From positions 864,001 through 928,000 of the forward strand of contig CAWFSF010000006.1 of NCBI GenBank assembly GCA_963818475.1: 64,000 bases of DNA, given 5' to 3'. The DNA is from Nitrospirota bacterium. Lineage in GTDB: Bacteria; Nitrospirota; UBA9217. The notes below the pieces were generated by a model. It saw only the letters and a list, made by a program, of their open reading frames with translations. It was not told the origin of the DNA and searched no databases. The position numbers and the translations under genes were made by a program. Below are positions 14,205 to 49,250 of the stretch, one piece after another. The first letter of the stretch is position 1. Every line of letters starts with the position of its first letter.

Positions 14205-14325
14205 AATTGTCCTTATGATGAGTGAGGTTTAAATGGCTGAAACACTTTAAATCAGGTGCAATATATCGGAAGCAACAATAACCCAGAGCAATTCCAGAAT
14301 TCAATTCTTGACAAGGAGGAGTTCT

Positions 14326-28175: not shown

Positions 28176-31100
28176 ATGTTCAGGCACGGAAAATCGAGAA
28201 TACTTGCGGTGGCAGCAGTTGCGGTCATGAGCGCGGTAATCTCCGTCACGGTCTTGGGTTCATCACCCTCGCCGGTGACGGTCAAGCTCACGCCTTCCCT
28301 GGTGTCGGTCGACACCTCGGCGTTGGCGCCGAAGCTGGCCCAGGCCGAAATGGACGCAGTCTGGCATCTCTTCGATCGGGACACGGACGCCGCCTACATC
28401 CCGATGGAAACGGCCCGGGTAACGGTAAACCTGCCGCAGTCGTCTGCCCTAAGCCAAGTCCGTGTTTATGGCGCGTCCTCGTATCAACTCAACCTGTACC
28501 GTGATAATAACGGCGCATGGGAGCCTGTGCCCTCCCTGACCGGCGTTGATCTCACGGTTCTGGGTGCGGCCTGGAACAGGTTGAATATCACGGAACCCTT
28601 TTCCACATCCCAGCTTTTGTTCGAATTCGTTCCGCAGGGGAACGTAACCGCCGGCCTGCGTGAGGTCGAGATCTGGGGTCCTGAGGCAGCGTCCGGGGAC
28701 AAGAGTTGGGAGTATGTGACGCTCGAAGGTATCCGTACACCTCAGGACATGGTCAATATACTAGCCCGCCCGGCTTCCCATATTCTGGAGTTCTCGGCCG
28801 CTCCCTCTGAATTGTCCGTACCCGAAGGAGGAACATCAGCCGTCGCCATCGGTCTCATTCAGAATCCCGCGTTGTTCAAACGCGCCTATATCCTCTATGA
28901 CGGCTACAATCTGGTCAGTTCGGTGAGCATCCAGCGCAGGATCAACAGCTTATCGTGGACCGGCGGTTTCGCGATTTCTCAGCCCGCGGACACCGTGCCT
29001 TCCTGGTCCTCTTACCTTGAAGAAATAAACCCGGCCTGGCTCGTTCAAGGAGAAAACAGGATCGAATTCCGGACAGCGAGCGGCACAGCAACCATCCGCG
29101 GTCTCAGGCTCATTGTCGAAACCGACAGCGGATGGAACCTCGTTTCAGCAGTAAGTGCAGCGGCTGTATATGACGGAGACACTTCGACTGCGTATACCAT
29201 TGCCGCGTCAGCAACCGACCCGTCGATTCAACTAAGTTTCGAACGCACGGTCCAGCCTGACATCCTGAAACTTCATAGCGCAGGTCCGATGAATCTGACC
29301 GCAGGACTGCAGTATCTGAACGGAGCAACGTGGCAGGATGTGAAAGCAGGCTGGCAGCTCAATCTTTCTACTCTCAAAGCCGGCTGGAACGATATAACTA
29401 TTCCCGGCAAGGTGACGACGCAGGCCCTTCGGTTGGTGTTTAATACAGCAAGCCTCAAGATAAAGCCCGGTGTGGGCCTCGGTGCGATCAACGAAGTGCG
29501 GGTGTCCGCGGCCCCTGTCGGCCCTGTCCCGGCTACTCCCCGGATCGTGATCAGCTATCCGCGCAACGGAGAATATTTCGGACGGACCGCATATATCCAA
29601 GGCTTTGCAACGCCCGCAGTTGATACGGCCGGTAATTCCGCCCGGTGCAGTGTCGAAGGCAAGGACGGCCAGCGAACGGTGCCGGACGGGTCTTTCAGCC
29701 TCTCCCTTACCAAGGACGAAACGCATTTCTACGACCAGGCGGACAACGATCCGTGGCAGCCGGTGGCGCAGTCGACATACGACGGCCAGATAGGCGCCAT
29801 GCAGAACATAGTCCTGAATAAAAATTCAGGGGTCCAGACAGATCCCGACCCAAACGGCGAGAGCAGGAAAAACGCGCCCTTTACCGATAACAGGGACCAT
29901 CACACGGAAAAAGTATCGCCCGGCCAGGCAAAGAAGATCCAGTACGGGGGCGTGACCCTCGACATTCCGCAGGGCGCAGTTGATCAGGACACGGACATTA
30001 CGATCGTTCCGTTGAATGAAACGGATCTTGCCCATTACGATCCGGGCATGATCAACGTCACCTATCCGGCAGCCGGTTACCGCTTCCTGCCTCACGGCAT
30101 GAAGTTCAAGAAGCCGATCAACATTTCGTTCGGATACGCGAAGCAGCTCTTTGTGGCAGGCCAGACCGACAACGACGTCAACATGTATTATTACGACGAG
30201 ACGCTGCTGCGATGGCAGCAGCTGAACCGCGTAAAAGCAGACCCGGCTACGTCCCAGGTCACGGCCCTGTCCGATCATTTTACCGACATCATCAACTCCA
30301 CCCTCGTGGTGCCCGAGCATCCGCAGGCATTGTCGTTCAACCCGAACTCGATCAAGGACATCAAGGCGGCCGATCCGACCGCCAATGTGAACCTCATCGA
30401 ACCGCCCCAGGCAAACAGCAGAGGCACGGCCAACCTGAGCTACCCCATCGAGGTGCCGCAGGGACGCAATAAGCTTCAGCCCAACCTTGCCGTTCAGTAC
30501 AACTCCTCGGGCGGAAACGGCTGGATGGGCATGGGCTGGGACCTCCCGATGCAGGCGATCACGGTCGATACCCGCTGGGGCGTCCCGCGCTACAGCTCGA
30601 GCAAGGAGACCGAGACCTATACAATCGACGGGGAACAGCTTTCGCCGGCCGCCCACCGCGGGCCCTTTGTAGATCGTGTCCTCGCGCAAAGAATTTTCCA
30701 TACCCGGGTGGAAGGTCAGTTCCGCAAGATCATCCGGCACGGGAGCTCTCCGTCCAGTTACTGGTGGGAGGTCATCGACAAGAACGGCACGCGCTATCTT
30801 TACGGCGGAACGAATGGTCCGACAACTGACGCCACTCTTAGAGACGAAAACGAAAATATTTTTATGTGGACACTCCGTGAAGTCCGGGACACGAACAACA
30901 ACTTCATACGCTATTATTATGCTCACGTGAAAGACCCCGGTTTTCCGGGCGGTCTCCCGGGGGAGAATCTCTACCTCCAGGGCATAACCTATACCGGCAA
31001 CGGGACAAAGGAAGGCCCCTACACCGTCACCTTCACGCGCGACCAGACGCGGATAGACAAACAGAGTGATGCGCGCGGCGGGTTCAAGCGAGTGACCGGC

Positions 31101-34100
31101 GATCTTCTGACCAAGATCGAAATCTATCTCGGCGGCACATACCAGGACGGCGAGGTGAAGGGCGGCAACTTCATCCGGAGCTACGAATTCGACTACAATC
31201 ACAACGCCTATGGCGACGGCAGTGAGGGCACGGCTTTTTATAAAACGCTCCTGACATCGATCAGTCAGTACGGAGCGAAGCACGGTCTCTTCAATAAGCA
31301 CGAGTTCACCTATTATGATGACGCGCGTAAACTCGATGGAACGTACAAGGGTTTTGCATCGACCGGATGGGATGCCAGGGGAAGCGGTACTATCACTGCC
31401 GGAGGGATTCCCGGGACCTGGGGCGCTGCGAGCGCGCTCGGCGGTGACACGAGCAACGGCGGGGGAGGTCATTTTCATCTTGGCCTCGGTATCGATACAG
31501 ACACAAGCACTAAAAATGTGACTATTGGTTTCAAAATCGGCTTCAACCAGACCGAAGGCGATGCGTTGGTCGCGATGGTGGACATAGACGGCGACGGTCT
31601 GCCCGACAAGGTGTACAACAATGGCGGCTATTTTTATCAGAAGAATATGTCCGGTCCGCATGGACCCGGCGCCAAGTTCGGTCCTCCTGTCTCGATCGGA
31701 ATCCCGGGTATCTCCCATCAGAGTGTGACCTCCACGACGTGGGGTGCTGAACTCTATATCTATGTGCCGATGATGTACGATCAGAACAGGGCCGAGACCG
31801 AGAACGATACTTACTTAATGGATGTGAACGGAGATGGACTTATCGACGTGGTGAAGGGGGGCATGGTTTACTTCAATCACATCGTGAATGAAGTTCCCGT
31901 TTTCGAATGGAACAGCGTGGCAACGCCGGTTCCGATCGGCAAAAGCGTGATCGACACAAATGGCCTCCTGCCGGACCGCAGTGCCGAGGAAGCCGAGCGT
32001 GAGGAAAAATTCCCGCTTCTCGATACGGTACGCCGCTGGGTGGCACCTTACGACGGCACCGTGAAAATCGATGCCCCGGTGACTCTTATCAAGGACCCCA
32101 AGAAAAAACCGGACTATAAGGACGATGGCGTACAGGTCGCGATACAGCTGGAAGGAGCGGAATTGTGGTCCACGCAGACGATCTCGGTAGAGCCCACAGA
32201 TCCGAGGTCCGCGCGGATCCTTGCCAACGACTACGATACAGTGCATACGCCGGTCGGGGTGGACAGCGTTCCGGTCCATCGCGGAGACCGGCTCTACTTC
32301 CGGGTGCAATCCGTGTACAACGGCCTCTATGATCAGGTCTCGTGGGACCCCATAATCACCTATCTTGCTGGTGACACGGCCCGCACGGACGCGAACGGTC
32401 TTACCGAGTATGTCTATCAGGCCTCGAAGGAGTTCACGCTTGCAGGCCGCCGGGGCAAGCTCACGATGCCGATTACCGGCACCGTGCACCTGGGCGGAGA
32501 ATTGAAGAAGACTAAAACGACCTCGGATGACGTTTCGATCTCGATCACGCAGAACGGAACAGAAGTGTACAGAAACACTGTCCCCTGGGACGAGACCGGC
32601 ACCTTCAACGTCTCCCAGGATATTAGCGTTAAGCAGAAAGACGAACTCGTGTGGCGCGTCCTGGCCGATTCGCAGGTCGATGCGCAGTTCGATGCCTCGA
32701 ATGTAACATTCAAACCTAGCATGTACTATAGCGCGGCCGACGGATATGATACGGTAACTGATAATGACGGCAAGCCGTTCATCAGTATCGATCCGCCCTA
32801 TGAGATGGACCTCTATCCGGTCAACACGCTTACCGCCCCGCAGGAGTTCCTCGTAACCGCGGCGACCGGGACCCTGATCGCCGTGCCTTCTCTTGAAATT
32901 AATTCCTCAATCGCTGTTCCCAGGGAGGTGGCCTTTACTGCGAAGCGCACAGGTGCATTGCTCGGGAAGGGGATCATCACGATCACCAGGGATGTTGATG
33001 GCAATCTTGTCGTTTCAGCCCCGACGCTTACATTTACTGTCGATCAGGGCGATAAGCTTTTCTTTGATTTCAGCACGCGCGACCTGACCCTTGCCGCCCA
33101 GGTAATATCGAGCAGCGTCGCCGTACATGATGAAAAGGGCAACTTTATTGATGCTCCGAGCGCCTTCCACAGCGCTGCTGCGGAAGATGTTTTCCCGGTT
33201 CCGTTCCGAGGTTGGGGCGTCGTCGGATATAACGGCAACAAGCCGCGCGACACTCAACCGATCGACCAGTCTCTCCTGGTGTTGAACGACTCTTACGATG
33301 TGAACAACGCTCGGGTCTATCCTTTCAGGCCGGTTCCTGTAGACGAAGCCTGGGGCGGGATCGACAAGAGCGCCTGGATCAAGAAAGGTGTGGTCAGCTC
33401 CTCGCGACTGGGCCTCAAAGAGATACCGTTGCTGCATTCCGATAAATTTAGCTCTTCCACAGCACCTTCGCGCATCTCGAAATCCACCAATGATTCCGGG
33501 TCGCTCATTGTCAGCGCCAGCAAAGGCCAGAGCGAAAGCCTGGTCGACTTCCAGGACATGAACGGTGATGCCTACCCCGACGTGATCGGTGGCGGCGGCG
33601 TTCAGTATACAGCGCCGACCGGAGAACTCAACGGCGGCGCGAGCGGAGGGCTCGGCTCTGCCCGGTTAAGCCGCAACGAGAGCTTCAATGTGAGACACCG
33701 ATGCGGCAGGCAACATCGCGACGTCGATTGCTAACGGCAAGGGTAACGTAGCGGCCAGCGGACAAGCCTCTGCGGGCGGCGGCTCGCAGGGCACCGACAT
33801 GCCGAGGATCGGCATGAGCGCCAACAAGGGCAACGGCACCTCAGATACCGAATACGACCTTATCGACGTCAACGGTGACGGTCTGCCGGACAAGGTGTTC
33901 AAGGGCGGCACGGTCATGCTGAACCTGGGTTACCAATTCAAGGGAGACCGGGGAGGCGTGGGAGCCGTCAACAGCGGCAGCACGGACAACGGCGGCGTAA
34001 GCATGGGTTTCCAGACCGACTGGTACAGCATGGGCGGCGGCATGAATGTCGGGCTGGACAACACGGTAAGCAGTGAAACCTACGCCGATATCAACGGCGA

Positions 34101-37100
34101 CGGGCTTCCTGACAAACTTAGTCCGGGCCTCGTGATGCTCAACACTGGCAGCGGATACAAGGCCATAACCTGGCCTGGTCTCGGCGAAGTGGCGCGTGAT
34201 GAGCACGTCTCCTATGGCGGCGGCGTCTACTTCACGTTTGGATTCACCATCTACGACATCATCAAGATCACGTTCAATATCGGCGTGAATATGACGAACA
34301 ATATTGGACGTCCCGAAGTGGCCTTCCGCGACATTGATGGCGACGGATATGTCGATCAACTGACCTCTACTTCAGCCGAACAATTATCAGTGGGTCGAAA
34401 TCAGATCGGCCGCACCAATATCCTTAAAACCGTGAAACGTCCGCTCGGCGGCAGCATCAGCGATCGAATACACGCGCGACGGCAATACCTATGACATGCC
34501 CCAGAGTCAGTGGACCCTTACGAAGTCGACCCTGACCGACGGCAGGAAGAACACGTACGAGACAGAGTTCGCATACAAAAACGGGTACAAGGACCGTTTT
34601 GAACGGGACTTCTACGGCTTCGAGACCGTGATCGAGAAACATGCGCCCGGTAAGTTCGACGTTTATAATAAATCGATCGAGCGCTGGATCGTGCAGACCT
34701 TCAATAATCGCGACTTCTATTTGAAGGGACTTCTGCTGGATTCGAGGACTACCGACAAGAACATGACGCATATCTGGGCCAGGACCGTCAACGAGTATAC
34801 GCTCATGCCTGTAGCGGGCTTCGACTACACTCAGTTCCCCGCCCTTTCCAGGACGGACACTTACTTCTATGACGGCAATGACAGCTCCAGCGCGAAAGAA
34901 GATGGCTTCAAGAAGAGTACCTACCAGAGGTTTGATTATGATCTCTTCGGGAATGTCAGCAAGTTCTGGGATTTCGGGGAGTTTTATCCGACGAACGATA
35001 TAACCGACGATATGCGCGCAGACATTGATTACTACAACGACCCGATCAAATACATCATCAAACCGCGGGAGATCAAGGTCTACGGAACCGCGAACAACAG
35101 ATCTCTTCGCTGGAGAACCTCAGGCTACGATGCAGCGGGCAATATGACAAGTCTCACGCTCCATAATACCGGTACGCCAGCGTCTGTCTCTACCATGTCC
35201 TATGATGATTACGGCAACATTCAGACCATCATAGATCCAGTTAATTACGCACTTACCTACAGCTACGATCAGACGACGTCAACGTATGTAACCGGCATCA
35301 TCGACAACTTTGCGACACCCTATTATTCCTCTGCCTCCTATAACCCGCTTTACGGGCAGATGCAGACGTCCGTTGACCTGAACATGAACATGGAGGCGAG
35401 GGGATACGACGAGTTCGGCAGGCTGATCTGCGTGTACGGACCGTATGATACGGTTCCTGTAGATCCCAACTCGTGCTCAGGCTCTCCGACCATAACCTTT
35501 GCTTACACGGCGCCTTTGGTCGCTTCGGATAATGACCTGAACGCTCCGGTCCATGCGGTTACGGTCAATAAGGCAATCTCGGCTAAGGGCACGAGCCCGA
35601 TCAACATCAAGACTGTCACGTACGCGGACGGCTTGAAACGCATCATTCAGACCAAGAAGGATGCAGATGTGTACGATGTAACGACAGGTCAGCCTGCCTA
35701 CGGTATGACCATCTCTGGTCTCGTCGCCTTCGACGAACTTGGCCGTGTTACGAGCCAGGGCCAGCCTGAATTCGAAGCTGGCTTCAATGAGGCATTCTCG
35801 GAGCTCGCAGCAACGAACCCGACATACTTCTCCTACGATATTCTCGATCGGACAACGCAGCTGCTTACACCTGATGACAAGGGGGACACGGACAGCGCCC
35901 GACCGGGCAAGTTCGCAAAAATAACGACCACGTATACGTTCGACTATTTCAACGGTAACCTCTACGCCAAGAGTGTTGTTGTAGATCCCGAAGGCAACCA
36001 TGTAATGGGCGCAAATTTCAGAGGCACCAAGGAAAGCTACCAGGACGTGGATGACCGGATCGTCGGCGTGGTCGAGTACAACAACGGCCATCTCATCAAC
36101 ACCGCTTACACCTACGATCCGCTTGGTCAGATCACCTCAGTAACGGACAACAAAGGCAATACCACCACAGTTGCCTATGACCAGGTCGGCAACAGGACTG
36201 AGATCAACAACCCGGATGCCGGCAAGACCACATACGGTTATGACGCTAACGGCAACATGACGAGCAAGCAGAACGGAAATAGCCAGAACATAGCGTACAA
36301 GTACACCTTCAACCGGTTAACTGACATAACGTACCCGCAAAGCACGACGGTGCATTATGACTACGGCCAAATGAATGAAGCCTTTAATCGCGCTGCAAGG
36401 ATCAAGCAGGTCACCGACGAGTCAGGCACCGAGTGGCGGTACTACGGCAGACTGGGCGAGACAATTCGTGAAGAGAAGATGGTGAATGCCCATACCCCGG
36501 CCGTGCAGAAGAAGAAGTATACCACTGACTACGTCTTCGACTCCTTCGGCAGAATGTGGGAGATGACCTATCCCGACGGCGAAACGCTGCACTACGCCTA
36601 CGACAAGGGCGGTCTGCTCAAGGCTGCCTGGGGCGAGAAGACGAGCAACAGGTATAACTATGTGAACAATCTCTACTATGACAAGTTTGCCCAGAGGGTC
36701 TATATCGAGTATGGGAACAAGACGAAAACAATCTACACCTACAACGACAAGACCAGAAGACTGGCAACACTCGACACGAATCTCAAGGGCGGGCAGTACA
36801 TACAGAAGCTGGGCTACACCTACGACCTTGTCGGCAACGTCAAAACTCTGCTGAACAACATCGCCATACCCACGAGCACTGCGCTCCCGGCAGGCCCTGT
36901 TCATCAAGAGTTTCTCTATGATGATCTTTACCAGATTACGAATGCAGAGGGTGGCTACACGTACAATGAGCACCCGAGGACTTCTGATGGCAAAACTACT
37001 ATCAGTCCGAATAAGTGGAATAATTATCACAACGATTTCACTTATGACACTATCGGCAACATGACCCAGAAGGTCCAGGTCAACCAGATCATTCAGCCGT

Positions 37101-38659
37101 CGACTACCGCGCTCCTTCCGAAGAAGACGAACTACGTGCTCAACTATGCTTATGATGCGAGCAAGCCGCATGCCGTGATTGACGATGGAGCAAAAACGTA
37201 CTCCTACGATCCGGCAGGCAACATGACCGGCTGGCAGGACAAGAACTCGGGCCAGAAGCGGACGATCAAATGGAACGAAGAGAACAGAGTTAAGGAGATC
37301 GACGACAACGGCAAGGCCACGTACTTCCTTTATGATGACGCCGGTGAACGCGTCGCCAAGAGAGGCCAGTACGGCGAGACGATCTATATCAACCGGTTCT
37401 ATGCAATAAAGAACGGAGAACTCGGAACCAAGCACGTTTTCGCCGGCGAGACGAGAGTGCTTTCGAAGGTGGTAAAGACACCGCCTACGACAACGGCAAA
37501 CAGCTCGACAACTACATCCACAACCTCGAATGTGACTTCAAGCACGACATCGACAATACCCGGCATAAACGGGTTAGACAACGGCAGGGGTAAGAAGCTC
37601 GGTATCATCAAGCGCCTGGGAGACGGTTATGTGTCAGGCATCACCCAGCCAGTCGAGAAAGATGAGTTCTATTACCATACAGACCATCTCGGCTCGAGCA
37701 ACATGATCACTGACGCATATGGCGATGTGTATCAGCATCTCGAGAACTTCCCGTATGGTGAGAGCTGGATCGAGGAAGGTGGCAGCCATGGTGGTAATCT
37801 GCCGGGATACAAGTTCACCGGCAAGGAGCTTGATCCGGAGACTAATCTGTACTATTATGGTGCACGGTACTATGATCCAGTCTTGAGCAAGTGGATTAGT
37901 GCGGATCCGATATTGGGAAAATATCTCAATGGTAAAGGAGAGAACTCGATTTATCAACCCGAAGTCCTGGCCCTCTTTAGTTATGCGCACCTTAACCCTA
38001 TAAAACTGATTGATCCAGATGGCAATGAACCTAATAACGCACAAGCTATTACGTGGCAACAAGCCAGGCAAATTATAATAAGCAATTCGCGAACTACAGG
38101 AAAAACAATAACACTTCAAAATCTTCTATATCTTCAAGGTGCTCGCGGCGGGAAAAAAGTCGGTCCTTTCGGTGGCGATCGCGGTGGTCGGTATGTTTGG
38201 ACTGCAAAACGAGGCTGGATGGATCTCGGTCATTTCTTTCAAGTGGCAGGAAAGGCTCAGGAAAAATTGGGATCAGCTGGGCGATTGACTGCAAAATGGA
38301 CATATCAAGGTAGGGCTGCTTTCGAAGCTGGACTTTTTGCAATGACCAGTTATGCTGAGAACAAGGATAAGGGGACAGCATCTTATAATTCCTATGAAGA
38401 TCGTCCGAGTAATAGAGCGGGAGCTGACTTTTTCTTGGGGTATTATGAGGGTGGACGGGGAAAGGAGTTACTGAAAAATCTGGACAAATTCTTCGAAGAT
38501 GCTGGAGCTGGTAGGCCTCAAGATGCAGCAAATTGGAAAAAGATGCAGGCAAGCCCTCGAACGAAACAATGGTTTGAGCAGAATGATTCGTATACGCCTA
38601 TGCTTAACCCGAGGCGAATGAATCCTCCCGTTTATCCACCAGATAAAGGAGGCCAATAA
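28176..38659 (+). CDS. Giant SpvB/TcdB-like FG-GAP and Rhs toxin (~3,490 aa), split by two +1 frameshifts (~33694, ~34459)
   Basis: Signal peptide, ZU5-like region, SpvB GTANLSYPIEVP..GMGWDL, DxNGDGLPD repeats, YD repeats, YYYGARYYDP, DPDG. Confidence 0.85.
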
Positions 38660-39186
38660 TGAACAAAAAAATTGCAACTGCCATAATTGTAATTATTTCT
38701 TGTAGTCTAGGATTTGTTGCCGGTTACTTCACAAATTCTTTCATTCAGTTTTCTAGATCTTCGGGCATTTCCGAAAAGAGAATGAATGAACTTACTCGCG
38801 GACCATGTGAAGTACGGTTAAGAGGGATAAATGATCCTGTAATTAAATTGTTGCAAAAGGCTTATAATCTGCAAGAGACTGAACACGAAGATCTTGAGAT
38901 TAAGTCGATAAACGAATGCAGGTTTAACTATGTTTTGGAGTCAGATTTCCAAGGCGTTGCTAAAGTAATTTTTTCCCCAAGATCAAAAGGGGTCAATCGA
39001 GTTGAATTTTATAGTCGGAATGACGATTCTTTGTGGACGATGAGCGGGCCTAGTTTTGTTGCTTCCCTCTTTTCTGACGACAAACGGAACTATTTATATG
39101 ACGGATTTCGAGGCCGAATGTACGTAATGGAGAAAAATAATATTTCATCTTTTAAAGAAATCGGACAAGGGGCCCATATTAAGTAA
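38659..39186 (+). CDS. Putative immunity protein with N-terminal membrane anchor
   Basis: Start overlaps the Rhs stop codon; AT-rich. Confidence 0.55.
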   Translation: MNKKIATAIIVIISCSLGFVAGYFTNSFIQFSRSSGISEKRMNELTRGPCEVRLRGINDPVIKLLQKAYNLQETEHEDLEIKSINECRFNYVLESDFQGVAKVIFSPRSKGVNRVEFYSRNDDSLWTMSGPSFVASLFSDDKRNYLYDGFRGRMYVMEKNNISSFKEIGQGAHIK

Positions 39187-39195
39187 GACAATCTT

Positions 39196-39225
39196 GGGGA
39201 CATCCTATAGCCCCCTTGTCAAGTG
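39196..39225 (-). mobile_element. Solo IS110 right-end/target junction
   Basis: 30/30 reverse complement of 6272-6301. Confidence 0.85.
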
Positions 39226-39233
39226 GCAATCTT

Positions 39234-40300
39234 GGGGACGTTGTTACTTACATTGCAAAACACTTGACATCGCCATTAGAAGTCGATAATATTCCTTCAT
39301 GCCGCGTCACGCTCGCTTAGACGCCCCCGGCGCCTTGCACCACATCATGGTCCGGGGGATCGATAAGTCAAACATCTTTCGCGATGCAGAGGACAAAGCC
39401 CGCTTTCTTGAGCGTCTTGGGCAAAACGTTCAGGGCTCCAAATGTTCAATATACGCCTGGGTGCTCATGGACAACCATGTTCACCTGCTATTCCGAAGCG
39501 GCCAAGACGGCATCTCAGCCGTCATGAGAAAACTCCTTACCTGGTACGCCCAATACTTTAACCGCAGGCACGGCCGGAAGGGGCATCTGTTCGAAAACCG
39601 GTACAAATCCATCCTCTGCGACGAAGACAACTATCTCCTTGCCCTTGTCCGCTACATCCATCTTAATCCCGTTCGAGCAAAAATCATCCAGACCATGGCA
39701 GAGATGGACAAATACCCCTGGAGCGGCCATCGTGCCGTGATAGAAAAGGCAAAGTACCCGTGGATGGACACGGCAACAGTATTGTCACAGTTCGGAGGCA
39801 CGAAAAGAAAAGCCAGGAATGAATATCGGCGGTTTATGCAGGAGGGCATGGATCAGGGACACGATCCCCAGTTTTCCGGCGGCGGACTTGTTCGGAGCCT
39901 CGGCGGGTGGTCCAATGTCCTCTCTATGAGACGGAAAGGCCATAAGGAGGAAACGGACGAGCGGATCCTTGGAAGCGGCGATTTCGTACATCAAGTCATA
40001 AAAGAAGCGGAAGAGAAGTCGCTGCGGCAGATGAAACTCAAAAGATCGGGGCTGACCCTGATAAAGATCGTCGAGCAGGAATGTAGAAAAGGGCAGGTCA
40101 GCCGGATGGAACTGGAGAGCGGCAGCCGGCGGTCTAAAGTAAGTCAAGCGCGTGCACAGATCGCACGACGCGGCATGAAAGAGCTCGGCCTTTCGGCCGC
40201 AGAGGTTGCGCGACATCTTGGCGTAGCCACATCAAGCATAACGCGGGCAGTTAATAAAATCGAGATTCGAGATACAATGCAACGTAAGTAACAACGTCCC
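39234..40300 (+). mobile_element. Y1 tyrosine-transposase element with 23-bp terminal inverted repeats
   Basis: gggacgttgttacttacattgca (39235-39257) vs tgcaacgtaagtaacaacgtccc (40278-40300), 22/23. Confidence 0.85.
39299..40291 (+). CDS. RAYT-like HUH/Y1 transposase with C-terminal HTH
   Basis: MPRHAR, HHIMVRG, NHVHLL, GHLFENRYKS, YIHLNP, YPWS. Confidence 0.92.
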   Translation: MPRHARLDAPGALHHIMVRGIDKSNIFRDAEDKARFLERLGQNVQGSKCSIYAWVLMDNHVHLLFRSGQDGISAVMRKLLTWYAQYFNRRHGRKGHLFENRYKSILCDEDNYLLALVRYIHLNPVRAKIIQTMAEMDKYPWSGHRAVIEKAKYPWMDTATVLSQFGGTKRKARNEYRRFMQEGMDQGHDPQFSGGGLVRSLGGWSNVLSMRRKGHKEETDERILGSGDFVHQVIKEAEEKSLRQMKLKRSGLTLIKIVEQECRKGQVSRMELESGSRRSKVSQARAQIARRGMKELGLSAAEVARHLGVATSSITRAVNKIEIRDTMQRK

Positions 40301-40570
40301 GAAAGTTCGCATTGTATGTCGTGTCTATCTGCAGTTAATAATAGAATTTCTAGCTCCGGGGTTTTCTGGCAGCGCTTGGATTCGTAATATCATTGTTTTA
40401 TGTTGGCAGAGCTGCCGAAGCCTTACGGGGCTTTAGTACGTTTCTTTTGTTCGCGTTCCTTGGAATTGCAGTTCTAAGGGCAGTCGGATTGATTTCTGGT
40501 GAGCCAGTTTCGTTCTAGGAAGAAAGAAAAGTAGGGACCCGAACGAGTTCATGCGCCATTCAAGCTACAA

Positions 40571-40593
40571 GGGGTCATTGGGGTCACTTCTTT
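40571..40593 (-). repeat. Hairpin arm AAAGAAGTGACCCC (another empty intron-type site)
   Basis: ggggtcattggggtcacttcttt. Confidence 0.7.
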
Positions 40594-41142
40594 ACGGGTT
40601 GTTGCTCAAATGACTTTTCACAATCGGTTAAGCGCCTTGATGCAAAAAAAGTCTAAGCTAACGATAGGGAAATACCGGTTCTGTCTCTGGGGAAAGCTCA
40701 AACTGAGCGAGCCGGAGGCCTTTACCTCTGTTCTTTGAACAACGAGCTGCCTTGCTGCAGCTGCTTTCTTCGGCTTCGATACATGCGCTATCAGCACTTG
40801 GATATTTTGGATGGCACATTTTACAGTATAGATAAGGAAGCCGATAACGACAACGTATTGAAATTCATTAACACGAAAAGAACAGGATGAAAACGAGGAT
40901 ATGCAAGGAGCGAACTGCGGGATAATGAGACGTTCGCCAGGGCGCAGGGCGGGCGACATGTACGGACCTGGCGGCGGTCCAATGGCAACAGGAAAGGTCA
41001 TAGGTAAAGGACGACGGACTGGAGCCGCGATGTCGACATCGAGTCGCAAACGAGCGGAAGAGAAGTCAGGCGGCACAGGGAACTCGAACAGCGGGGCTGA
41101 CGCGGACAAACTCGACGGAGCGAGGAATGTAGCAAGGCCTCG

Positions 41143-41345
41143 TCAGCCGGCTGCGGGAGGCGAATCCCGACGGTCCAGGTACGTCAGGCCGCTCAGGGAG
41201 CAGACGCTTCTTGAAGGACTCGCATTCGGCCGGCAAAGCCCGCGCCATCGAGCCTTATCAAAACCGTATCGGGTTCCCCTGGCAAAGGAACGCTCCATTA
41301 GATGTTGTCTGGTTTTGATGTCATAACGTGCATTGGCTGATCGAC
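41143..41345 (-). pseudogene. IS1182/IS5-type transposase C-terminal fragment
   Basis: RQHLMERSFARGTRYGFDKARWRGL. Confidence 0.6.
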
Positions 41346-41348
41346 TGA

Positions 41349-42345
41349 TTGCACGCATGCGCTCCAGGACATCCTGCCGGAGATGACGCTAGCGATTCAT
41401 ACCGGTTCCTGGCTTTACTCCGCATCGCACCGTTGTTGGTATCTTCGGTCATTGCTCGCTCGAGTGATACGACTCACTCGGCGGGGGAAAAAACAGTTTG
41501 TGGCGTCTGCAGCACGGTTCACCGGACCTTTTACGATCATAAGATCAAGCGGGTCCGTGATCTTTCTAATGGCGATGCCCGCATCTATCTGGAACTACCG
41601 GTACGACGAGTCCAGTGCCGGAGGTGCGGTAAGGTGAAACAAGAGAAGCTGGCGTTTCTGGCAGACAGTCCGTTTTATACCAAGCGCTTTGCCTTCTATA
41701 TCGGCAAGCGGTGCAGCACCTCAACGATCAAGGATGTTGCCAAAGAGTTTCATCTTGACCGAAGAGCCGTCAAAGAACTCGAAATGCAGTACATGCGGGA
41801 GAAGCTTCGTCGGGCTGGAAACCCCGGACCGAAAGTTATCGGTATCGACGAAATCTCGATCCGCAAGGGCCATACGTACCGGATCGTAGTCAGCGACCTG
41901 GAGCGGCGGCGGCCAATCTGGTTCGGAGGTGAAGACCGCTCGGAAGAAAGCCTAAACTGCTTCTTCGACGAGTTGGGGCCGAAAAAGGCTAGCAAAATAC
42001 GCCTTGCGGTCATGGACATGTGGAAGCCTTTTGAAAAGTCCACACGTCAAGAAAGCTCCGCAGGCAGCCATTCTCTACGACAAGTTCCATATCATAAGGC
42101 ACCTGAACGATGCCTTGGACAAAATTAGAAAGAGCGAATATGCCAGACTGACCGGCAACAGTCGTAAGTTCATCAAGGGTCAGAAATATACGCTTCTCTC
42201 GCATCGCGAGAATCTTACGACGGATGGGAGAAGATCGTTAAAGACGCTTTTGACTGCTAACAAGCGGCTAAACACTGCCTATATCCTTAAAGAGGAGTTC
42301 GGGCAGCTCTGGGACTATCAGTCAGAAGCCTGGGCCAGAAAGTAA
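41349..42345 (+). pseudogene. ISL3 transposase, frameshifted and truncated
   Basis: Zn finger CGVC/CRRC, IGIDEISIRKGHTY, VMDMWKPF, YDKFH. Confidence 0.88.
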
Positions 42346-42786: not shown

Positions 42787-43046
42787 TGAATTGGACTTTC
42801 AGCCGATTTGAGATAAACTATCTCGAACGGAGGAAGGTCCATGCGAAAAAAGCGTCACAATTACACACCCGAGGAGAAGGTTGCGATCCTCAAGCGTCAT
42901 CTGGTCGAACAGGTCCCGATCTCAGACCTATGCGACAAGTATCAGTTGCAACCAACGGTCTTCTGCCACTGGCAGAAGCAGTTCTTTGAAAACGGTGCGG
43001 CAGCCTTCACTCAAGGCAAGGATCCCAAGCGCCAAGAAACCCAGCA
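42787..43046 (+). pseudogene. IS3-family left end and orfA fragment
   Basis: RHNYTPEEKVAILKRHL..WQKQFFENG; cut at caatcttggggac. Confidence 0.75.
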
Positions 43047-43129
43047 CAATCTTGGGGACATACTATATAGCTCCTGTCAAGAGACCCTTTATTTTGCATG
43101 ATTTTCAATAAGATAATTTTCTGCATCAA

Positions 43130-43345
43130 CTAAGAACACAGTTTTCCTTCCGGCATTCCTGCCGCTATCGCTTTATCGGCGAGTCTCTCGCATTCAGGCG
43201 AACGACGGCTTAATCGTTATATCTATCCGGCGTGCATGGCCGCCAAGAATACCTTATCCAGATTCCATCGTTCAAACGAGAGGCACTGTATTGTCCCGCA
43301 CGAGGTCAACTGCCCTCAACGTTGATGCTCGGGCTCTTGCCGAAA
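43130..43345 (-). ncRNA. Predicted bridge/seek RNA of IS110-2 (boundaries approximate)
   Basis: Homologous to 6010-6200; ATCAACGT matches its own target 8/8. Confidence 0.7.
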
Positions 43346-43378
43346 TCGTTTTTGTGCTTCAGGATCATGCCGCTTTTT

Positions 43379-44660
43379 TCAGCGTTTTCGGATCCTCCTG
43401 CTTGAGATATTTTGGATCGAAGATTCTTTCTTCTTCATCAGCGTCCATGCGATGATCAAGAGTTTTGCGGCGAGCTTGACACGCATCTTTGTGCCGATCC
43501 CTTTCTCCCGCCCGGCCTTTGAGCTTGTTCGTAAAGTAGGCGATGAAGTCCTTGTTCTTGGCGAGGCGATAAGCGCCGCCTGATACAGTCCATACCGGAG
43601 GTCGGCCTTACCCTGTTTGGAGATGACCGGTATCGCGCTGTTTGACTTCTTGCCGCTCCGGTTCGCGCAAAGGCCAAGACCGGCCATTTTCAAGACCTGC
43701 TTCGCGTCGTAAACCGCTGAGGATTACCGATGGCCCCCAGGACTTTCGAAGAGATATCCGGCCCGAATCCCGGAATGCTCAGAAGGTACGTATACTCGGG
43801 AAACTCCAGGCAAGCATCCTCGATCTTGTCTTCCACTGACTTGATGCTTTGGCGAAGCTGCTTCAAACTGTCCACCATGACCTGCGCTTCGAAAAAAGGC
43901 CTCTCCATGGTGACAGATGGATCAACCGCGGCCCTCCAGATCTTGCCACCTTGCGGCCCTTGGATAGCTCATTGTGCCCGGCGCGACGGTACGGCAGAAG
44001 TCATCGTATTCCATGCCAGCGATCTCCGACGGATCGAGGCATTCCCTCACTACTGCCAGGGTTTCCGAGGGACCATAGTGTTGGTCCAGCTCGGGAAATA
44101 CTGCGCGAGGAGTTGGTTGCGAATGCACGCGCTTAAGCCGTGTTCCCGTTTCTTCAGCCGCCGTTTAAGCGCGTTGAGTATACGTACGTTCCGCAGCGTC
44201 ATCAGGGGGTATTCGTAAAACAGGCACTTTCCCTGGGAGATGAGATCGGCGACATTTGCAGCGTCTTTAACGTCATGCTTGTCCCAGCGGCCGTCCAGAA
44301 GCGGCCAGTTGTTCTTGACCGCGACGCCTCCCACAAGAACAACCATGTGCCCGCATTTGATCAGATGCTCCGCCAGGGGCTTGTGATAGTTTGCTGTCGG
44401 CTCGATGCCGAAAACGACTACCGTCAGGCTGTATTGAACTTTTATTCGCTCGACATAAGCGAGCAGCTTTTGAAAGCCTTCAAGCGTATTGTCAAAAACC
44501 AGATTCTTAACCAGAGTTTTGCCACGTGCCGTGCCGAAAAAAGCGTTATGTTTTTCCTTAGCCGCATCAATGCCGACGATCAAATGCTTATCCGAACCGC
44601 GAATCTCTTTCTTCAGTTGAAGAAACTGCTCAAGTCTGATATCATCTACATAGTTCTATA
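43379..44660 (-). pseudogene. IS110 transposase with several frameshifts
   Basis: VGIDAAK, GIEPTANYHKPL, IPGFGPD, KMRVKLAAKLL in different frames. Confidence 0.88.
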
Positions 44661-44807
44661 GAAGCCTCCTGTCTCTTGAATTTAGTTCCGTCATAAACTA
44701 ATTCTTAGCAAGAGGTTTCTGTTTTGGGTAGCTTATGAAAAAATATTCTTTCAGCTATACTGCTTGATTCACCTATGCTCTTTCTACTATACTTTCTACT
44801 ATATAAC

Positions 44808-44952
44808 GTTGATACCTAGCAAGCATTTAGCTTGACAAACCCTACCCTATTTAAAATCACCCCATGCCACGCCAAGCGAGACTCGACGTACCCGGAGCCC
44901 TGTGGGGGCATTGGGGTCACTGAGATACAATGCAACATAAGTAACAACGTCC
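44808..44952 (+). mobile_element. Internally deleted (MITE-like) derivative of the Y1-transposase element
   Basis: ATG at 44864 encodes MPRQARLDVPGAL, followed by gagatacaatgcaacataagtaacaacgtcc matching 40269-40299. Confidence 0.8.
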
Positions 44953-45060
44953 GTACGCAGTAACAACTGATTATCTTGCGAGTTCAAGTCCCGTCCGAGG
45001 AATTGTCCGTACACCTCGATAGCACGAGGGAGCGGCATCTGAGCAATCGGGACGTATGGG
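44953..45060 (+). mobile_element. 5' fragment of a second group II intron
   Basis: gtacgcagtaacaactgattatc..gcacgagggagcggc..ctgagcaatc homologous to 16830-16925. Confidence 0.85.
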
Positions 45061-45180
45061 ATTTCCCCAAGGTAACCTATAACGCTGATCGGATCCTGCA
45101 ACTGTTGAGACCCCGCCCCACCATAGCCCTTTCCGAAAAAAAGCTTGCAACAACTCAGTAAAATCAGTAATATACACCTC

Positions 45181-45819
45181 GTGAAAAAAATACAGGATTA
45201 CTTCAAAAAATACTTCATTACCGGGCTGCTCGTGCTCATCCCGATCTGGGCGACCTACTATGTGCTGTCAGGCCTGCTGGGGATCATCGACGGGATGCTG
45301 GGCGATTTGCCGGGATACTTGCTGGGACTGAAGTTCCCGGGGCTCGGCATCATCACGCTGATCCTGTTCGTGCTGTTCATCGGCGTCCTCTCCGCCAACT
45401 ATATCGGCAAGAACCTGGTCAGCTACAGCGATTCCATGATGCAACGAGTCCCGTTGGTGCGCGGTGTCTATTCCACCATGAAGAAGATCATGGATACCTT
45501 TTCCATGAAGCAGAACTTCCATGGCGTCGGACTGGTCGAATATCCCCGGAAGGGCTGTTACAGCGTAGGATTCATCACCGGCGGCCTTCAGGGTGAGGAA
45601 TTGGGTCTCACCGGCAGGTTTATGACGGTCTTTGTTCCTACCACCCCGAACCCCACAGCGGGTTTTCTTCTTCTCCTCCCCGAGACGGAGGTGCACCGGC
45701 TCAATATGTCCGTTGATGAGGGCATGAAGTTCATTGTCTCTCTCGGGCTGGTGTCACTGAGCGAGATTCAGGCCAATAAGCTTAAGAACAACGTTTGCAC
45801 TGAGGCTTCCAAAGTATGA
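45181..45819 (+). CDS. DUF502 domain protein
   Basis: YFITGLLVLIP, VEYPRKG, VFVPTTPNPTAG. Confidence 0.9.
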   Translation: MKKIQDYFKKYFITGLLVLIPIWATYYVLSGLLGIIDGMLGDLPGYLLGLKFPGLGIITLILFVLFIGVLSANYIGKNLVSYSDSMMQRVPLVRGVYSTMKKIMDTFSMKQNFHGVGLVEYPRKGCYSVGFITGGLQGEELGLTGRFMTVFVPTTPNPTAGFLLLLPETEVHRLNMSVDEGMKFIVSLGLVSLSEIQANKLKNNVCTEASKV

Positions 45820-47201
45820 AACCGACCGTGGTGATCCTTGCAGCAGGGCTGGGGACGAGAATGAAGTCCGGCCTTGCCAAAGCCCTGCACCCTCTTGCGG
45901 GACGGCCGCTGATCCAGCATGTTCTGGAGGCTGTTTCGGGGCTCGCTGCTGAACGGACCGTTGTCGTGCTGGGCCACCAGGCCGACCACGTGCGGAAAAT
46001 AGTGGAAGGGTACGGCGCAACCATAGCGCTCCAGGCAGAGCAGCTCGGCACGGGACATGCGGTGATGCAGGCACACGAGGTCATTGCTGCGGCGAAAGGA
46101 CCGGTCCTGATCCTCTGCGCTGATACGCCGCTGCTCACCACGACCACGCTGCGTTCGATCGTAGATCTCCATGCCGCGTCCCGCGCTGCGGTGACGGTCA
46201 TGACGGCCGTGGTCCTGGATCCCTTCGGGTACGGCAGGGTCGTGCGGAGCAAGGGCGGCATCACGCGCATTGTCGAGGAGAAGGACGCCACCACGGCCCA
46301 GAAAAAGATCATTGAAGTGAATGCCGGGATCTACTGTTTTGAACAACGGTTCCTGCTGGAAGCGCTGAAGTCCATCGGAAATAAGAACGCACAGGGTGAA
46401 TACTATCTGCCGGATACGATAACGCTGGCGCGGAAAAAACGACTCGTTGTGGCGGGCCTGGTCTGCGAAGACCCTGATGAGGTCATGGGGGTCAATACGC
46501 GGGTCGACCTGAGCCGCGCGGAACATATCATGCGTTCCCGGATCAACCGCGCCTGGATGCTGGCAGGCGTGACCATGCTCGACCCCGGCGCGACCTTCAT
46601 CGGGAGCGAGGTCACCTTGGGCCGCGACTGTATCCTGTATCCGAACGTCAGACTCGAAGGAAAAACAACGATCGGTCAGGGATGCACGGTCTTTCCAGGC
46701 ACCCGGATCGTGGACAGTACCATCGGCAATGCAGTGACGGTCAAGGACTGCTCCGTGATCGAAGAGAGCGCGATCGACGACAGCGCTTCGGTGGGGCCCT
46801 TCGCTCATCTCCGGCCCGGTTCGGTCATCGGCGCCCGGGCCAGGATCGGCAACTTTGTCGAGATAAAGAAAACATCCATTGGCGAGGGCAGCAAGGCGAA
46901 TCATCTCGCCTATATCGGCGACGCCACCGTGGGAAAAGACGTGAACATCGGCGCCGGCGTGATCACCTGCAATTATGACGGTTTCGATAAATTTGCGACG
47001 ATCATCGAGGACGGAGTATTTGTCGGCAGCGACAGCCAACTGGTGGCGCCGGTCCGGATCGGACGCGGGGCGCTTATCGCCGCAGGAGCCACGATCACGC
47101 GCGATGTCCCGGCTGATGCCCTGGCCATCAGCCGCCCGCCGCAGGACATACGCGAAGGTTTTGCCGGAAGGCGAAGGAAAATGAAGCAAAAAAAGAAGTG
47201 A
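45816..47201 (+). CDS. glmU: Bifunctional UDP-GlcNAc pyrophosphorylase/acetyltransferase
   Basis: LAAGLGTRMKS, QLGTGHA, hexapeptide repeats, NYDG. Confidence 0.97.
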   Translation: MKPTVVILAAGLGTRMKSGLAKALHPLAGRPLIQHVLEAVSGLAAERTVVVLGHQADHVRKIVEGYGATIALQAEQLGTGHAVMQAHEVIAAAKGPVLILCADTPLLTTTTLRSIVDLHAASRAAVTVMTAVVLDPFGYGRVVRSKGGITRIVEEKDATTAQKKIIEVNAGIYCFEQRFLLEALKSIGNKNAQGEYYLPDTITLARKKRLVVAGLVCEDPDEVMGVNTRVDLSRAEHIMRSRINRAWMLAGVTMLDPGATFIGSEVTLGRDCILYPNVRLEGKTTIGQGCTVFPGTRIVDSTIGNAVTVKDCSVIEESAIDDSASVGPFAHLRPGSVIGARARIGNFVEIKKTSIGEGSKANHLAYIGDATVGKDVNIGAGVITCNYDGFDKFATIIEDGVFVGSDSQLVAPVRIGRGALIAAGATITRDVPADALAISRPPQDIREGFAGRRRKMKQKKK

Positions 47202-47420: not shown

Positions 47421-49250
47421 ATGTGCGGAATTATCGGCTATATCGGCAAAGAACCTGCAGTCCCGATCCTGATCGAGGGGCTTAAAAAGCTTGAGTACCG
47501 CGGCTATGATTCTTCAGGCGTGGCGGTCATGCAGAATGACAAGATCGAGGTCCGCAGGGCCGTGGGCAAGCTCCAGAACCTGGAGACGCTGCTTCGCAGC
47601 GAATCGCTGAGCGGCAGGATCGGTATCGGACATGTCCGCTGGGCCACGCACGGCCGCCCGTCCGAGGAGAACGCCCATCCGCACCGCGCCGGCAACATCG
47701 TGGTCGTGCACAACGGCATCATCGAAAACTATATTACGCTCAAAAAAGAGCTCGCTGCCAAGGGCCGCACCTTTCTGTCCGAAACTGACACAGAGGTCAT
47801 CGCTCAGTTGATTGACAGCCTTGCCAAAGACGGCGTCAGCCTTGAAACGGCTGTCCGGGAAGCGACCCGCCACCTCGAAGGGGCCTACGCCATAGCGGTC
47901 ATCGACGAGCGTGACCCCGAGGTCGTCATCGGCGCACGGAAGGGCAGTCCGCTGGTTGTCGGTCTCGGCCAGGGTGAGTTTTTCCTGGCTTCGGATATCC
48001 CCGCCATTTTGCACCGCACGCGCGACGTGCTGTTCCTGGACGACGATGAGATGGCCATCCTTTCGGATGTGGGGGTCCGTATTACCGACCTCAAAGGCAA
48101 TGAAGTGACCCGCGAGATCACCCGCGTCCTCTGGAACCCGGTGATGGCGGAAAAGGGCGGTTACCGCCACTTCATGCTGAAGGAGATCTTCGAGCAGCCC
48201 CGGGCGATCATGGACACCATCCGCGGCCGCATTTCCCAGGAAACCGGCGCCATTCATCTGGAAGAGGTCGGCATCGGTCGGGAGCGCCTCAATACGATCA
48301 AGAAGATCTTTATCGTTGCCTGCGGCACGTCATGGCATGCCGGCCTGGCGGGCAAATACATGATCGAAGAGCTCGCGTCGATCCCGACCGAGGTCGACAT
48401 CGCATCGGAGTTCCGGTACCGTAATCCCCTGGTGGGCCCCGACGACCTGTTCATCGCCATTACCCAGTCGGGCGAGACCGCCGATACGCTGGCTGCCATG
48501 CGCGAGGCCAAGAAAAAAGGGGCAACGGTCATTGTTGTCTGCAATGTCGTTGGATCCACGGCGAGCCGCGAGGCCGACGGCGTGGTCTATACCCACGCCG
48601 GACCCGAGATCGGCGTGGCTTCGACCAAAGCCTTTACAGCACAGCTTACGGCGCTCTACCTCTTCGGCCTGTTCTTCGCCGGATTGCGCAAAACGCTTGC
48701 TATTGACGAATTGAAGAAGAAGCTTGCCGACCTGGTGCACATTCCCTCGCTTGTTGAGCGCTGCCTTGAGGACAACGAACGCATCGAGCAGATCGCGAAG
48801 CTTTTCTTCAAGGCCAACGACTTCCTGTACCTCGGCCGGGGGCCGAACTTCCCGGTAGCGCTCGAGGGCGCGCTCAAACTGAAAGAGATCTCATACATCC
48901 ATGCCGAGGGGTATCCGGCTGGAGAAATGAAACACGGTCCGATCGCGCTGATCGACGAGAACCTGCCCGTCGTGGTCCTGGCCGGCAGGAACGGCGTCTA
49001 TGAAAAGATCCTGGCCAATATCGAAGAAGTGAAGGCCCGCGGCGGGATCGTCATCGCGATCACGACCGAGGGAGACACCGAGATCGTCAAGCGGGTGGAC
49101 CACGCGGTCGCGGTGCCGGCGACGAACCAGCTGTTGATGCCGATCCTCCTGTCCATCCCGCTCCAGTTGCTGGCATACCACATTGCCGTGCTGCGCGGCG
49201 CCGATGTTGACCAGCCCCGAAATCTAGCCAAGAGCGTAACGGTGGAGTGA
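47421..49250 (+). CDS. glmS: Glutamine--fructose-6-phosphate aminotransferase
   Basis: MCGIIG, RWATHG, PRNLAKSVTVE. Confidence 0.98.
   Translation: MCGIIGYIGKEPAVPILIEGLKKLEYRGYDSSGVAVMQNDKIEVRRAVGKLQNLETLLRSESLSGRIGIGHVRWATHGRPSEENAHPHRAGNIVVVHNGIIENYITLKKELAAKGRTFLSETDTEVIAQLIDSLAKDGVSLETAVREATRHLEGAYAIAVIDERDPEVVIGARKGSPLVVGLGQGEFFLASDIPAILHRTRDVLFLDDDEMAILSDVGVRITDLKGNEVTREITRVLWNPVMAEKGGYRHFMLKEIFEQPRAIMDTIRGRISQETGAIHLEEVGIGRERLNTIKKIFIVACGTSWHAGLAGKYMIEELASIPTEVDIASEFRYRNPLVGPDDLFIAITQSGETADTLAAMREAKKKGATVIVVCNVVGSTASREADGVVYTHAGPEIGVASTKAFTAQLTALYLFGLFFAGLRKTLAIDELKKKLADLVHIPSLVERCLEDNERIEQIAKLFFKANDFLYLGRGPNFPVALEGALKLKEISYIHAEGYPAGEMKHGPIALIDENLPVVVLAGRNGVYEKILANIEEVKARGGIVIAITTEGDTEIVKRVDHAVAVPATNQLLMPILLSIPLQLLAYHIAVLRGADVDQPRNLAKSVTVE

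Follow-up and report, generated by a model that had tools for sequence, protein, structure and literature searches.

What is a Y1 (HUH) transposase gene doing between inverted repeats in a region where pieces of similar repeats recur beside truncated genes? The question is raised by a stretch of 64,000 nucleotides (nt) from a Nitrospirota bacterium (GTDB lineage UBA9217; GenBank assembly GCA_963818475.1, contig CAWFSF010000006.1, positions 864,001–928,000 of the forward strand), which is referred to here as the window and numbered from its first letter. An earlier, sequence-only reading had proposed that the dispersed ends of this Y1 element capture, delete and assemble single-gene modules, somewhat like an integron without an integrase. 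Our analysis indicates that, very probably, the segment at 39227–40308 is a TIRtron, a transposase gene within its own long terminal inverted repeats (TIRs), that the other end motifs have several sources, and that the island was formed by nested insertions and is not a cassette array.

The gene (39299–40291, + strand) has an intact reading frame encoding a protein of 330 aa. That it is bounded by inverted repeats, as had been stated in the sequence-only reading, was borne out by two arms of 26 nt (39232–39257 and 40278–40303) that are 92 % complementary, the right arm overlapping the stop codon at 40289–40291. Using the arm together with a comparison to contigs from other metagenomes, the left TIR was delimited to 39227–39257 (+ strand), with a tip of approximately 5–7 nt outside GGGGAC, then GGGGACGTTGTTACTTACATTGCA. 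The right TIR (40278–40308, − strand) lies over the last codons and the stop codon, and its outer limit at 40308 was placed by symmetry with the left tip. A sigma-70-like promoter is predicted within the left end at 39264–39292 (+ strand; TTGACA, 17 nt, TAATAT, 10 of 12 matches), and comparable TTGACA boxes are found past the upstream repeat in the paralogues described below. Both at 39264–39299 and in the left ends of the paralogues, the −10-like hexamer stops 6 nt short of the start codon (ATG in the window), which suggests that the transposase mRNA is leaderless or nearly so. In contigs from other metagenomes, the likeness to the window begins at 39227–39229 and the sequence upstream of that point is unlike that in the window. 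Hence, the unit is present in different contexts and its left limit falls at approximately 39227–39229. Two contigs from other metagenomes join 39265 to 40274 or 40275 via 35–36 different letters and thus represent gene-less doublets of the window's own repeat type.

Residues 15–121 of the protein match the Pfam family Y1_Tnp (IS200-like Y1 transposase; E 5.9e-13) and, in an alignment of 14 sequences, the two histidines of the HUH motif (H60-V-H62) and Y119 (in YIHLNP) are invariant. With the 330 aa protein alone as the query, a search among solved structures returned no matches. A profile built from the 14-sequence alignment found the structure of Escherichia coli TnpA-REP (4er8_A, E 0.011), with the HUH and tyrosine motifs paired with HMH and YIYINP of 4er8_A. 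The AlphaFold model (mean pLDDT 76) is confident at residues 11–187 and approximately 250–330 and disordered at 188–238; pLDDT is >85 across most of residues 11–180, and the C-terminal region at 256–322 is helical. When this model was compared with solved structures using Foldseek, 4er8_A was again the nearest (E 9.9e-7, TM 0.70 on the target), followed by the TnpA proteins of IS608 and ISDra2 (2vjv_A, E 2.5e-4). From the alignment and the model, the protein is assigned to the TnpA-Y1 superfamily, with an intact HUH/Y1 core.

Genes resembling those for the REP-associated tyrosine transposases (RAYTs; REP, repetitive extragenic palindrome) but with long TIRs were named TIRYT by Di Nocera, De Gregorio and Rocco in 2013, and the units that they form were named TIRtrons (PMC3733652); that paper also reports a GGGGWSAS motif in some TIRs and repeats that are moderately abundant, both singly and as dimers. 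Quentin, Siguier, Chandler and Fichant (2018) placed most TIRYTs in TnpA-Y1 subclass 2.1, which has a C-terminal DnaA_C/helix-turn-helix (HTH) region, and stated that its function is unknown (PMC6006769). A full-text literature search for 'TIRYT' returned only these two papers. The remark in the sequence-only reading that TIR-associated Y1 enzymes are poorly characterised was therefore a fair one, though the class had already been described and named. Judged by its sequence features, the element in the window is a further member of the TIRYT/TIRtron class and probably matches subclass 2.1. It shares with TIRtrons a RAYT-like Y1 gene, long TIRs that replace the REP hairpins and are not themselves stem-loops, a GGGG-rich start to the repeat, a fixed short distance to the gene, a right repeat that covers the 3′ end of the gene, and repeats that are also found alone or in pairs in moderate numbers. 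A C-terminal extension with a weak likeness to DnaA_C/HTH_23, at scores below the Pfam cut-offs, would link it to subclass 2.1. The host lineage, which from the names attached to the closest homologues is apparently Nitrospirota, is a difference.

The relationship to the better known Y1 systems is less close. The RAYTs and their REPIN repeats share with the element the nearest solved fold (4ER8, with the HUH and tyrosine motifs aligned) and inverted gene-less doublets that fold as long structures, but here there are no GTAG-tagged REP hairpins, a single arm does not fold on itself, the NCBIfam score is below the cut-off, and several gene copies are accompanied by few repeats. The IS200/IS605 elements IS608 and ISDra2 are alike in the catalytic fold, in being small single-gene elements and in the absence of an evident target duplication. 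However, IS200/IS605 elements have asymmetric subterminal hairpins at both ends and no TIRs, whereas the element in the window has TIRs, no tnpB and, in its protein, a putative additional DNA-binding domain at the C terminus.

The genome under study (G000, 4.66 Mb) contains three further near-full-length paralogues that share 65–68 % protein identity, one of them in two frames, as well as a second subfamily (approximately 40 % protein identity) and several fragments. The close paralogues are each flanked by inverted repeats starting GGGGACGTTG, and the repeats of the second subfamily start (A/G)GGGTCAG and include the motif AGGGTCAG. Beyond this genome, the protein collection gave more than 7,900 homologues among the matches listed. 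Of 16 loci examined in this and 10 other genomes, 14 have a TIRYT-type gene between such repeats; the two exceptions were a split gene, for which repeats were seen by another reading, and a truncated gene. The tip of the repeat, (C)TT-GGGGACGTTG, is conserved across genomes and the inner part varies between copies. Over the inner 16 nt, the identity between arms is 0.84 within an element vs 0.50 between elements. The likeness of the repeats also tracks the protein identity with r = 0.47, a value reached by 1 of 2000 label shuffles, though as the 14 loci are related by descent this correlation is indicative only.

When the genome was scanned with a weight matrix of the repeat, 41 matches scoring at least 16 were found, compared to 3 in the reversed-genome control. 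They make up four units with a gene (1067–1081 bp), three gene-less doublets (66–77 bp) and solo copies, and there are also two weak inward-facing pairs of unlike subtype that are 8.7 and 11.4 kb apart. The folding of single arms is on a par with that of shuffled sequence (z −0.3 to +0.3), and doublets fold as long hairpins (z −8.6 and −5.1).

On this evidence, the TIRtron would be a selfish element of 1.08 kb consisting of an intact TIRYT-type Y1/HUH gene with its own promoter and two TIRs of approximately 30 nt. By analogy with TnpA-REP and IS608 TnpA, the enzyme would act as a dimer on single-stranded DNA. We infer that the catalytic core reads and cuts the conserved tip and that the C-terminal HTH reads the copy-specific inner part of the repeat. 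The two arms of a unit or doublet may pair with one another in single-stranded DNA, as in REPINs.

Several observations weigh against this account. The C-terminal HTH matches at residues 256–322 are weak and under the Pfam cut-offs (HTH_23, 21.1 bits with a cut-off of 24.6; Bac_DnaA_C, 19.6 bits with a cut-off of 31.5), the match to NCBIfam NF047646 (REP-associated tyrosine transposase) scores 68.2 bits with a cut-off of 80, and the tip GGGGACGT fits only six of the eight positions of GGGGWSAS. The cleavage, binding, single-strand dependence and dimerisation ascribed to the enzyme are carried over solely from its relatives. At 65–68 % identity, the paralogues include no recent pair of copies, which speaks against recent transposition in this genome. 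One unit is common to a congener (G003), where it is at the same locus with 94 % DNA identity over the flank and the element, and this fits a long vertical residence. A search for empty sites, in which two TIRtrons and three doublets with their flanks were compared with five congeners, found none, as the flanks were either unconserved or conserved on one side only. None of the public sequencing runs contained more than 0.16 of the sampled words.

The age of the paralogues and the unit shared in place with G003 are also what would be expected if the enzyme were domesticated, namely a vertically kept, immobile RAYT-like protein that maintains the repeats as the Group 2 and Group 3 RAYTs do with REPINs. 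The doublets that fold like REPINs fit this explanation, and RAYTs are described (PMC5581495) as mostly single-copy and vertically inherited. However, four near-full-length copies, a second subfamily and fragments are found in one genome, and the gene is within its own repeats with its own promoter, which is an IS-like arrangement. The distribution is also patchy, with homologues at E≤1e-60 in 13 of 31 related genomes (G000 included) and several of the matches at the ends of short contigs. The unit in the window has unlike flanks in other metagenomes, and approximately 40 repeats per genome is far below the size of REPIN populations. We consider domestication quite unlikely, and the interpretation of 39227–40308 as a mobile TIRtron is retained in what follows.

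Why, then, are end motifs found in so many places in the window? Short words from the ends, such as AACGTCCCC (44 copies) and GTGACCCC (71 copies), are common genome-wide and carry little information alone. In the window, GGGGTCAC is present 4 times vs 0.97 expected from the genome density, and GGGGACGT 6 times vs 1.7 expected. Repeat-derived sequences are indeed enriched; the genome-wide density of the 41 repeats predicts approximately 0.6 per 64 kb and the window includes two intact copies, one degenerate copy (44954), two variant copies (3078 and 4061) and two that are split. However, not all of the sites listed as related ends in the sequence-only reading belong to this family. Those at 3070, 4053 and 44945 are true copies and those at 4551/6296 and 43054 are parts of split copies. 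The sites at 14197, 16824, 40571 and 8520–8550 are something else.

The sites at 3070 and 4053 are in solo repeats of a second subtype (GGGGACGTTAATACGTGAC...). The first (3054–3086, − strand) adjoins a 5′-truncated duplicate of the end of ORF (open reading frame) 1629–1943 and the second (4037–4069, − strand) is 100 % identical over 33 nt; a near-identical repeat flanks TIRYT genes at loci in two other genomes (L021 and L030). An internally deleted remainder of a TIRtron was recognised at 44806–44953 (+ strand) using tblastn and alignment to the intact repeat. It retains the inner part of the left repeat, the promoter-like box, the first 13 TIRYT codons (44864–44902, 13 of 13 residues matching two paralogues in tblastn) and the right repeat (44922–44953, with 44922–44952 97 % like 40269–40299). 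Hence, the site at 44945 is a genuine end, and that at 44911 the joint of the internal deletion.

The split copies were each interrupted by an IS110-family insertion sequence (IS). Sites 4551 and 6296 are the halves of one repeat split by IS110 copy 1 (4560–6295, + strand), with the inner part of the repeat on the left flank (4533–4559, + strand) and the tip (GTCCCC; 6296–6301, + strand) on the right, where it adjoins a 5′-truncated PIN gene that covers only positions 72–172 of the PIN_12 profile. Sites 43054 and 44806 are the halves of another repeat split by IS110 copy 2 (43060–44805, − strand), which is decayed, has its frame in pieces and is 70 % like copy 1. Here, the tip (43047–43059, + strand) terminates a remnant of IS3 orfA (42841–43053). 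A second copy of the 13 nt tip (39189–39201, + strand) and a 25 nt remnant of an IS110 right end (39202–39226, − strand; 39193–39225 is 97 % like 6304–6272) lie immediately to the left of the TIRtron, and the same arrangement is found elsewhere in the genome (C1:303527–303561). The sequence-only reading had noted that a 13-mer occurs three times, and this proved correct in a stronger form, as these (39189, 39227 and 43047) are the only copies in the genome. All are repeat tips beside IS110 right ends; the duplicated tip at 39189–39226 accounts for two of the three and the third adjoins IS110 copy 2.

The sites that are not copies of the repeat include 14197 and 16824, which lie in hairpins forming a separate three-copy family, and 40571, which is at the left end of a remnant of an ISL3-family element (40581–42345, + strand) that includes the GGGGTCAC word. 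A 389 bp insert in this remnant (40819–41207) is missing from the copy at C1:342042–342452 and holds a 163 nt fragment of a TIRYT gene (40991–41153) that is 75 % like the middle of the gene and without repeats. The repeat at 8520–8550, in which two tip-like units stand in tandem, was not assigned to any family. One more motif, at 47911, is inside ORF 47421–49250 (glutamine-amidotransferase and SIS domains) and fits chance.

Can the dispersed ends nonetheless have assembled the island gene by gene? The roughly tenfold enrichment of repeat-derived sequences in the window is in favour of this, as is the position of repeats exactly at points of gene truncation (3086/3089, 6296 and 43053/43054). 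The coincidence of motifs with breakpoints claimed in the sequence-only reading is thus real for 3070/4053, 6296, 39196, 43054 and 44945, but the cause appears to be nested insertion of other mobile elements, as each of the three truncation points is explained by a simple TIRtron-remnant or IS110 insertion. Among the 41 matches in the whole genome, no inward-facing pair encloses a single passenger gene, and four of the 11 listed sites are not these repeats. The boundaries of gene presence and absence that were compared also failed to coincide with the motifs. Three congeners share the genes rightward from approximately 45079–45102 (a DUF502 ORF at 45145–45819 and a nucleotidyl-transferase/hexapeptide ORF at 45816–47201), and upstream of this point they differ from the window and among themselves. 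In G004, homology resumes at approximately 22939 and the toxin-cluster cargo is absent from that place. The variable segment, approximately 22.9–45.1 kb, contains an Rhs/SpvB-type toxin cluster and remnants of mobile elements; its right edge is approximately 130 nt past the nearest repeat and at its left edge (approximately 22939) there was no repeat match with a score of at least 8. The likeness to an integron consists solely of short repeats between some genes, and there are no attC-like sites flanking single genes, no array and, in the 42 window ORFs scanned (66–51555), no member of the integrase/tyrosine recombinase Pfam families. Integron-like capture, deletion and assembly by the Y1 ends is therefore exceedingly improbable, and nested insertion is preferred.

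A further suggestion of the sequence-only reading, that other elements can use the ends as target sites, has held up well. IS110 copy 1 consists of a transposase gene (4694–5986; DEDD_Tnp_IS110 PF01548, E 1.8e-19, and Transposase_20 PF02371, E 5.9e-16), a 5′ non-coding region of 134 nt and a 3′ non-coding region of approximately 309 nt. A second full copy at C2:737283–739012 is 98.6 % like it and has the same junctions. Within the repeats, the insertion point is exactly between ...ACGT and CCCC..., and the junctions are alike in eight full copies from three genomes (the two full copies and copy 2 here, one in the congener G003 and four in G016, which is of another genus), with the left flank ending ACGT and the right flank starting GTCC. 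When joined, the flanks reconstitute a TIRYT-type repeat of varying subtype. Four more right-end pieces of IS110 were found in relatives, each followed by GTCCCCAA.

To look further afield, other species were scanned with a 24-letter pattern of the right end, which carries approximately 31 bits so that approximately 550 chance matches are expected and only the letters that follow count as evidence. In the 80 stretches examined out of at least 120, CCC followed 44 of 81 matches, compared to approximately 1 in 64 by chance, and among the matches examined those followed by CCC were mostly in Thermodesulfobacteriota and Nitrospirota assemblies. The matches to the pattern also included one unrelated, conserved repeat family of cyanobacteria (L097, L100, L109, L111, L116, L117, L121 and others), with CTTGACATA.TGAATATAGTATGT then ATCGCATAGTCCGCAC, which looks like the promoter of a repeated element.

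Elements of the IS110/IS1111 group that target repeats are already known, such as ISPa11 and ISPpu9 in REPs and IS4321/IS5075 in the inverted repeats of Tn21, and they resemble the elements described here in having a DEDD transposase and a fixed position and orientation. Also shared are a long 3′ non-coding region with a stretch that matches the target, and the pairing of TTGACA near the right end with TATATA at the left, resembling the family's junction promoters. The differences are that the target is the repeat of a Y1 element, that the guide RNA is here a prediction from sequence, and that inspection of the ends of copy 1 by eye revealed no subterminal inverted repeats of the IS1111 kind. 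Our literature searches brought up no report that connects TIRYT repeats to IS110-family elements.

IS1111/IS110 elements guided by a seekRNA, with a downstream non-coding region, have been described (PMC11187229). In the 3′ non-coding region of the elements examined here, the stretch preceding ACGTTGAGG includes a match of 6–11 nt to the left target. This guide-like stretch ends ACGT-TGAGG approximately 45–60 nt past the stop codon and equals the end of the left target. In copy 1, it is at 6028–6034 (+ strand) and repeats the final 7 nt of the left target exactly; copy 2 matches its target over 8 nt and two of three near-identical copies in G016 over 10–11 nt, the target of the third having a mismatch inside the stretch matched by the guide. 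The letters before ACGT vary by lineage, and guide and target vary in step (ACA/ACA, ACT/ACT and TCA/TCA). It is thus probable that a guide RNA from the 3′ non-coding region directs the insertion of IS110 into the repeats. Against this, the matches on which it is based are short, some of the matching letters are the same in every copy and could have a structural role, a comparison of 10 elements gave a guide identity of 5.2 of 10 positions to the element's own flank vs 4.2 to those of others, and an Rfam search of the IS110 non-coding regions matched no family.

Pieces consisting of the right end of IS110 only (25–344 nt), each followed by a repeat tip, outnumber the full copies. In G000, they are at C5:632872–633215, C5:187635–187919, C5:609604–609849, C5:179161–179240 and C1:303527–303561. 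There are also tandem duplications of the 10–15 nt tip beside IS110 right ends or at the IS110 insertion position (window 39189–39239 and 8520–8545, G000 C5:187920–187975, L051 in G003 and L076 in G009).

The abundance of such pieces raises the question of whether the right end with GTCCCC spreads by itself as a small element, or belongs to the repeat family, with the link to IS110 being secondary. Pieces without a transposase are common (five in the genome in addition to the 25 nt remnant in the window) and, of the 27 matches followed by CCC that were examined with at least 1.8 kb upstream, 19 had no transposase and eight had one. A Pseudomonas element of the IS110 family is reported to spread its 3′ module alone. 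However, the left limits of the pieces differ, with between 25 and 344 nt retained, which resembles erosion through deletions more than a module with set limits; two of them border truncated TIRYT genes, and the full elements share the same right junction. An independent origin of the right-end piece is consequently judged unlikely, and insertion of complete IS110 elements into the repeat, followed by decay, is the interpretation that we favour.

A second class of mobile element is found at the repeats. The hairpin at 16781–16830 (+ strand), which has a 12 bp stem, stands directly before a full group II intron (approximately 16831–18746) and an unoccupied copy of the same hairpin is at 14157–14203 (+ strand); the intron follows two of the three hairpin copies at once. 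The assignment to group II is from Rfam (RF02005, 66.1 bits with a cut-off of 49; RF00029, 54.2 bits with a cut-off of 40) and the RVT_1 and GIIM domains of its reverse transcriptase-maturase. There are six full copies in the genome (window 16831–18746; G000 C6:241297, C6:266815, C6:268955, C6:271783 and C2:835792), four of them clustered within 32 kb on C6. They share 99.3–100 % identity, indicating recent activity. All six follow a flank ending ...GACC, and several are behind hairpins. In this, the intron may resemble the 'class C' introns, which home behind terminator hairpins.

A 5′ fragment of this intron (44954–45048, + strand, 91 % like 16828–16925) directly follows ...ACGTCC of the right repeat of the deleted TIRtron, with the junction at 44953/44954. 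In L131, from a metagenome-assembled genome of another phylum (match at 1364–1387), an IS110 right end precedes GTCC, to which the same 5′ sequence of the intron as at 44954, GTACGCAGTAACAA, is joined directly, which indicates that the intron also inserts at the repeat tip in a genome far removed from this one. The sequence at 16830 and 44954 had looked like the 3′ half of a tRNA gene, and a tRNA attachment site was considered, but ARAGORN found no tRNA genes, and Rfam and BLAST identified this sequence as the 5′ end of the intron.

In the mechanism proposed for the island, an IS110-family element would insert between ...ACGT and CCCC... of the repeats, probably via a guide RNA from its 3′ non-coding region, and a highly active group II intron would insert behind hairpins ending ...GACC or ...GTCC. 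The island would be a graveyard of nested TIRtrons, IS110, ISL3 and IS3 elements and the intron.

The remaining genes in the window include several other types. The region 28176–39186 encodes an SpvB-domain protein (1852 aa), a TcdB-midN/FG-GAP piece and an RHS-repeat protein of 1387 aa, and the RHS-repeat gene is followed by a small overlapping ORF (38659–39186) with no Pfam match that is presumably an immunity gene. The truncated PIN_12 gene adjoins a TIR-domain gene (6214–8360), and a trypsin-like peptidase/non-specific endonuclease fusion of 631 aa and an ORF of 783 aa without a Pfam match are found at 12174–16659; the gene content of these two regions looks defence- or toxin-like. A gene for a LysE-type translocator is duplicated (8643–9246 and 10556–11249, 92–97 % identity, 179 vs 209 aa).

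For the family, the element in the window adds a further member to a class that was named in 2013, and the integron-like idea can be dropped. The family is very large, and the split between a conserved tip and a copy-specific inner repeat suggests separate roles for the catalytic core and the HTH that can be put to the test. A broader proposal is that one IS110 lineage is specialised, through its guide, on TIRYT tips, has been retargeted by subtype across genera and, from the junction sequences, has spread into Thermodesulfobacteriota and other phyla, leaving tip duplications and right-end modules behind, and that a group II intron also inserts at this tip (after GTCC) in two or more distant genomes; on the present evidence, we regard this proposal as evenly balanced. 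If it is true, the TIRYT repeats would be a safe-harbour site shared by two classes of RNA-guided mobile element, and IS110 would be the parasite of a parasite. The repeats, as a conserved natural target of IS110 elements that are probably guide-directed, with retargeting between subtypes, provide a comparative set for the study of guide evolution.

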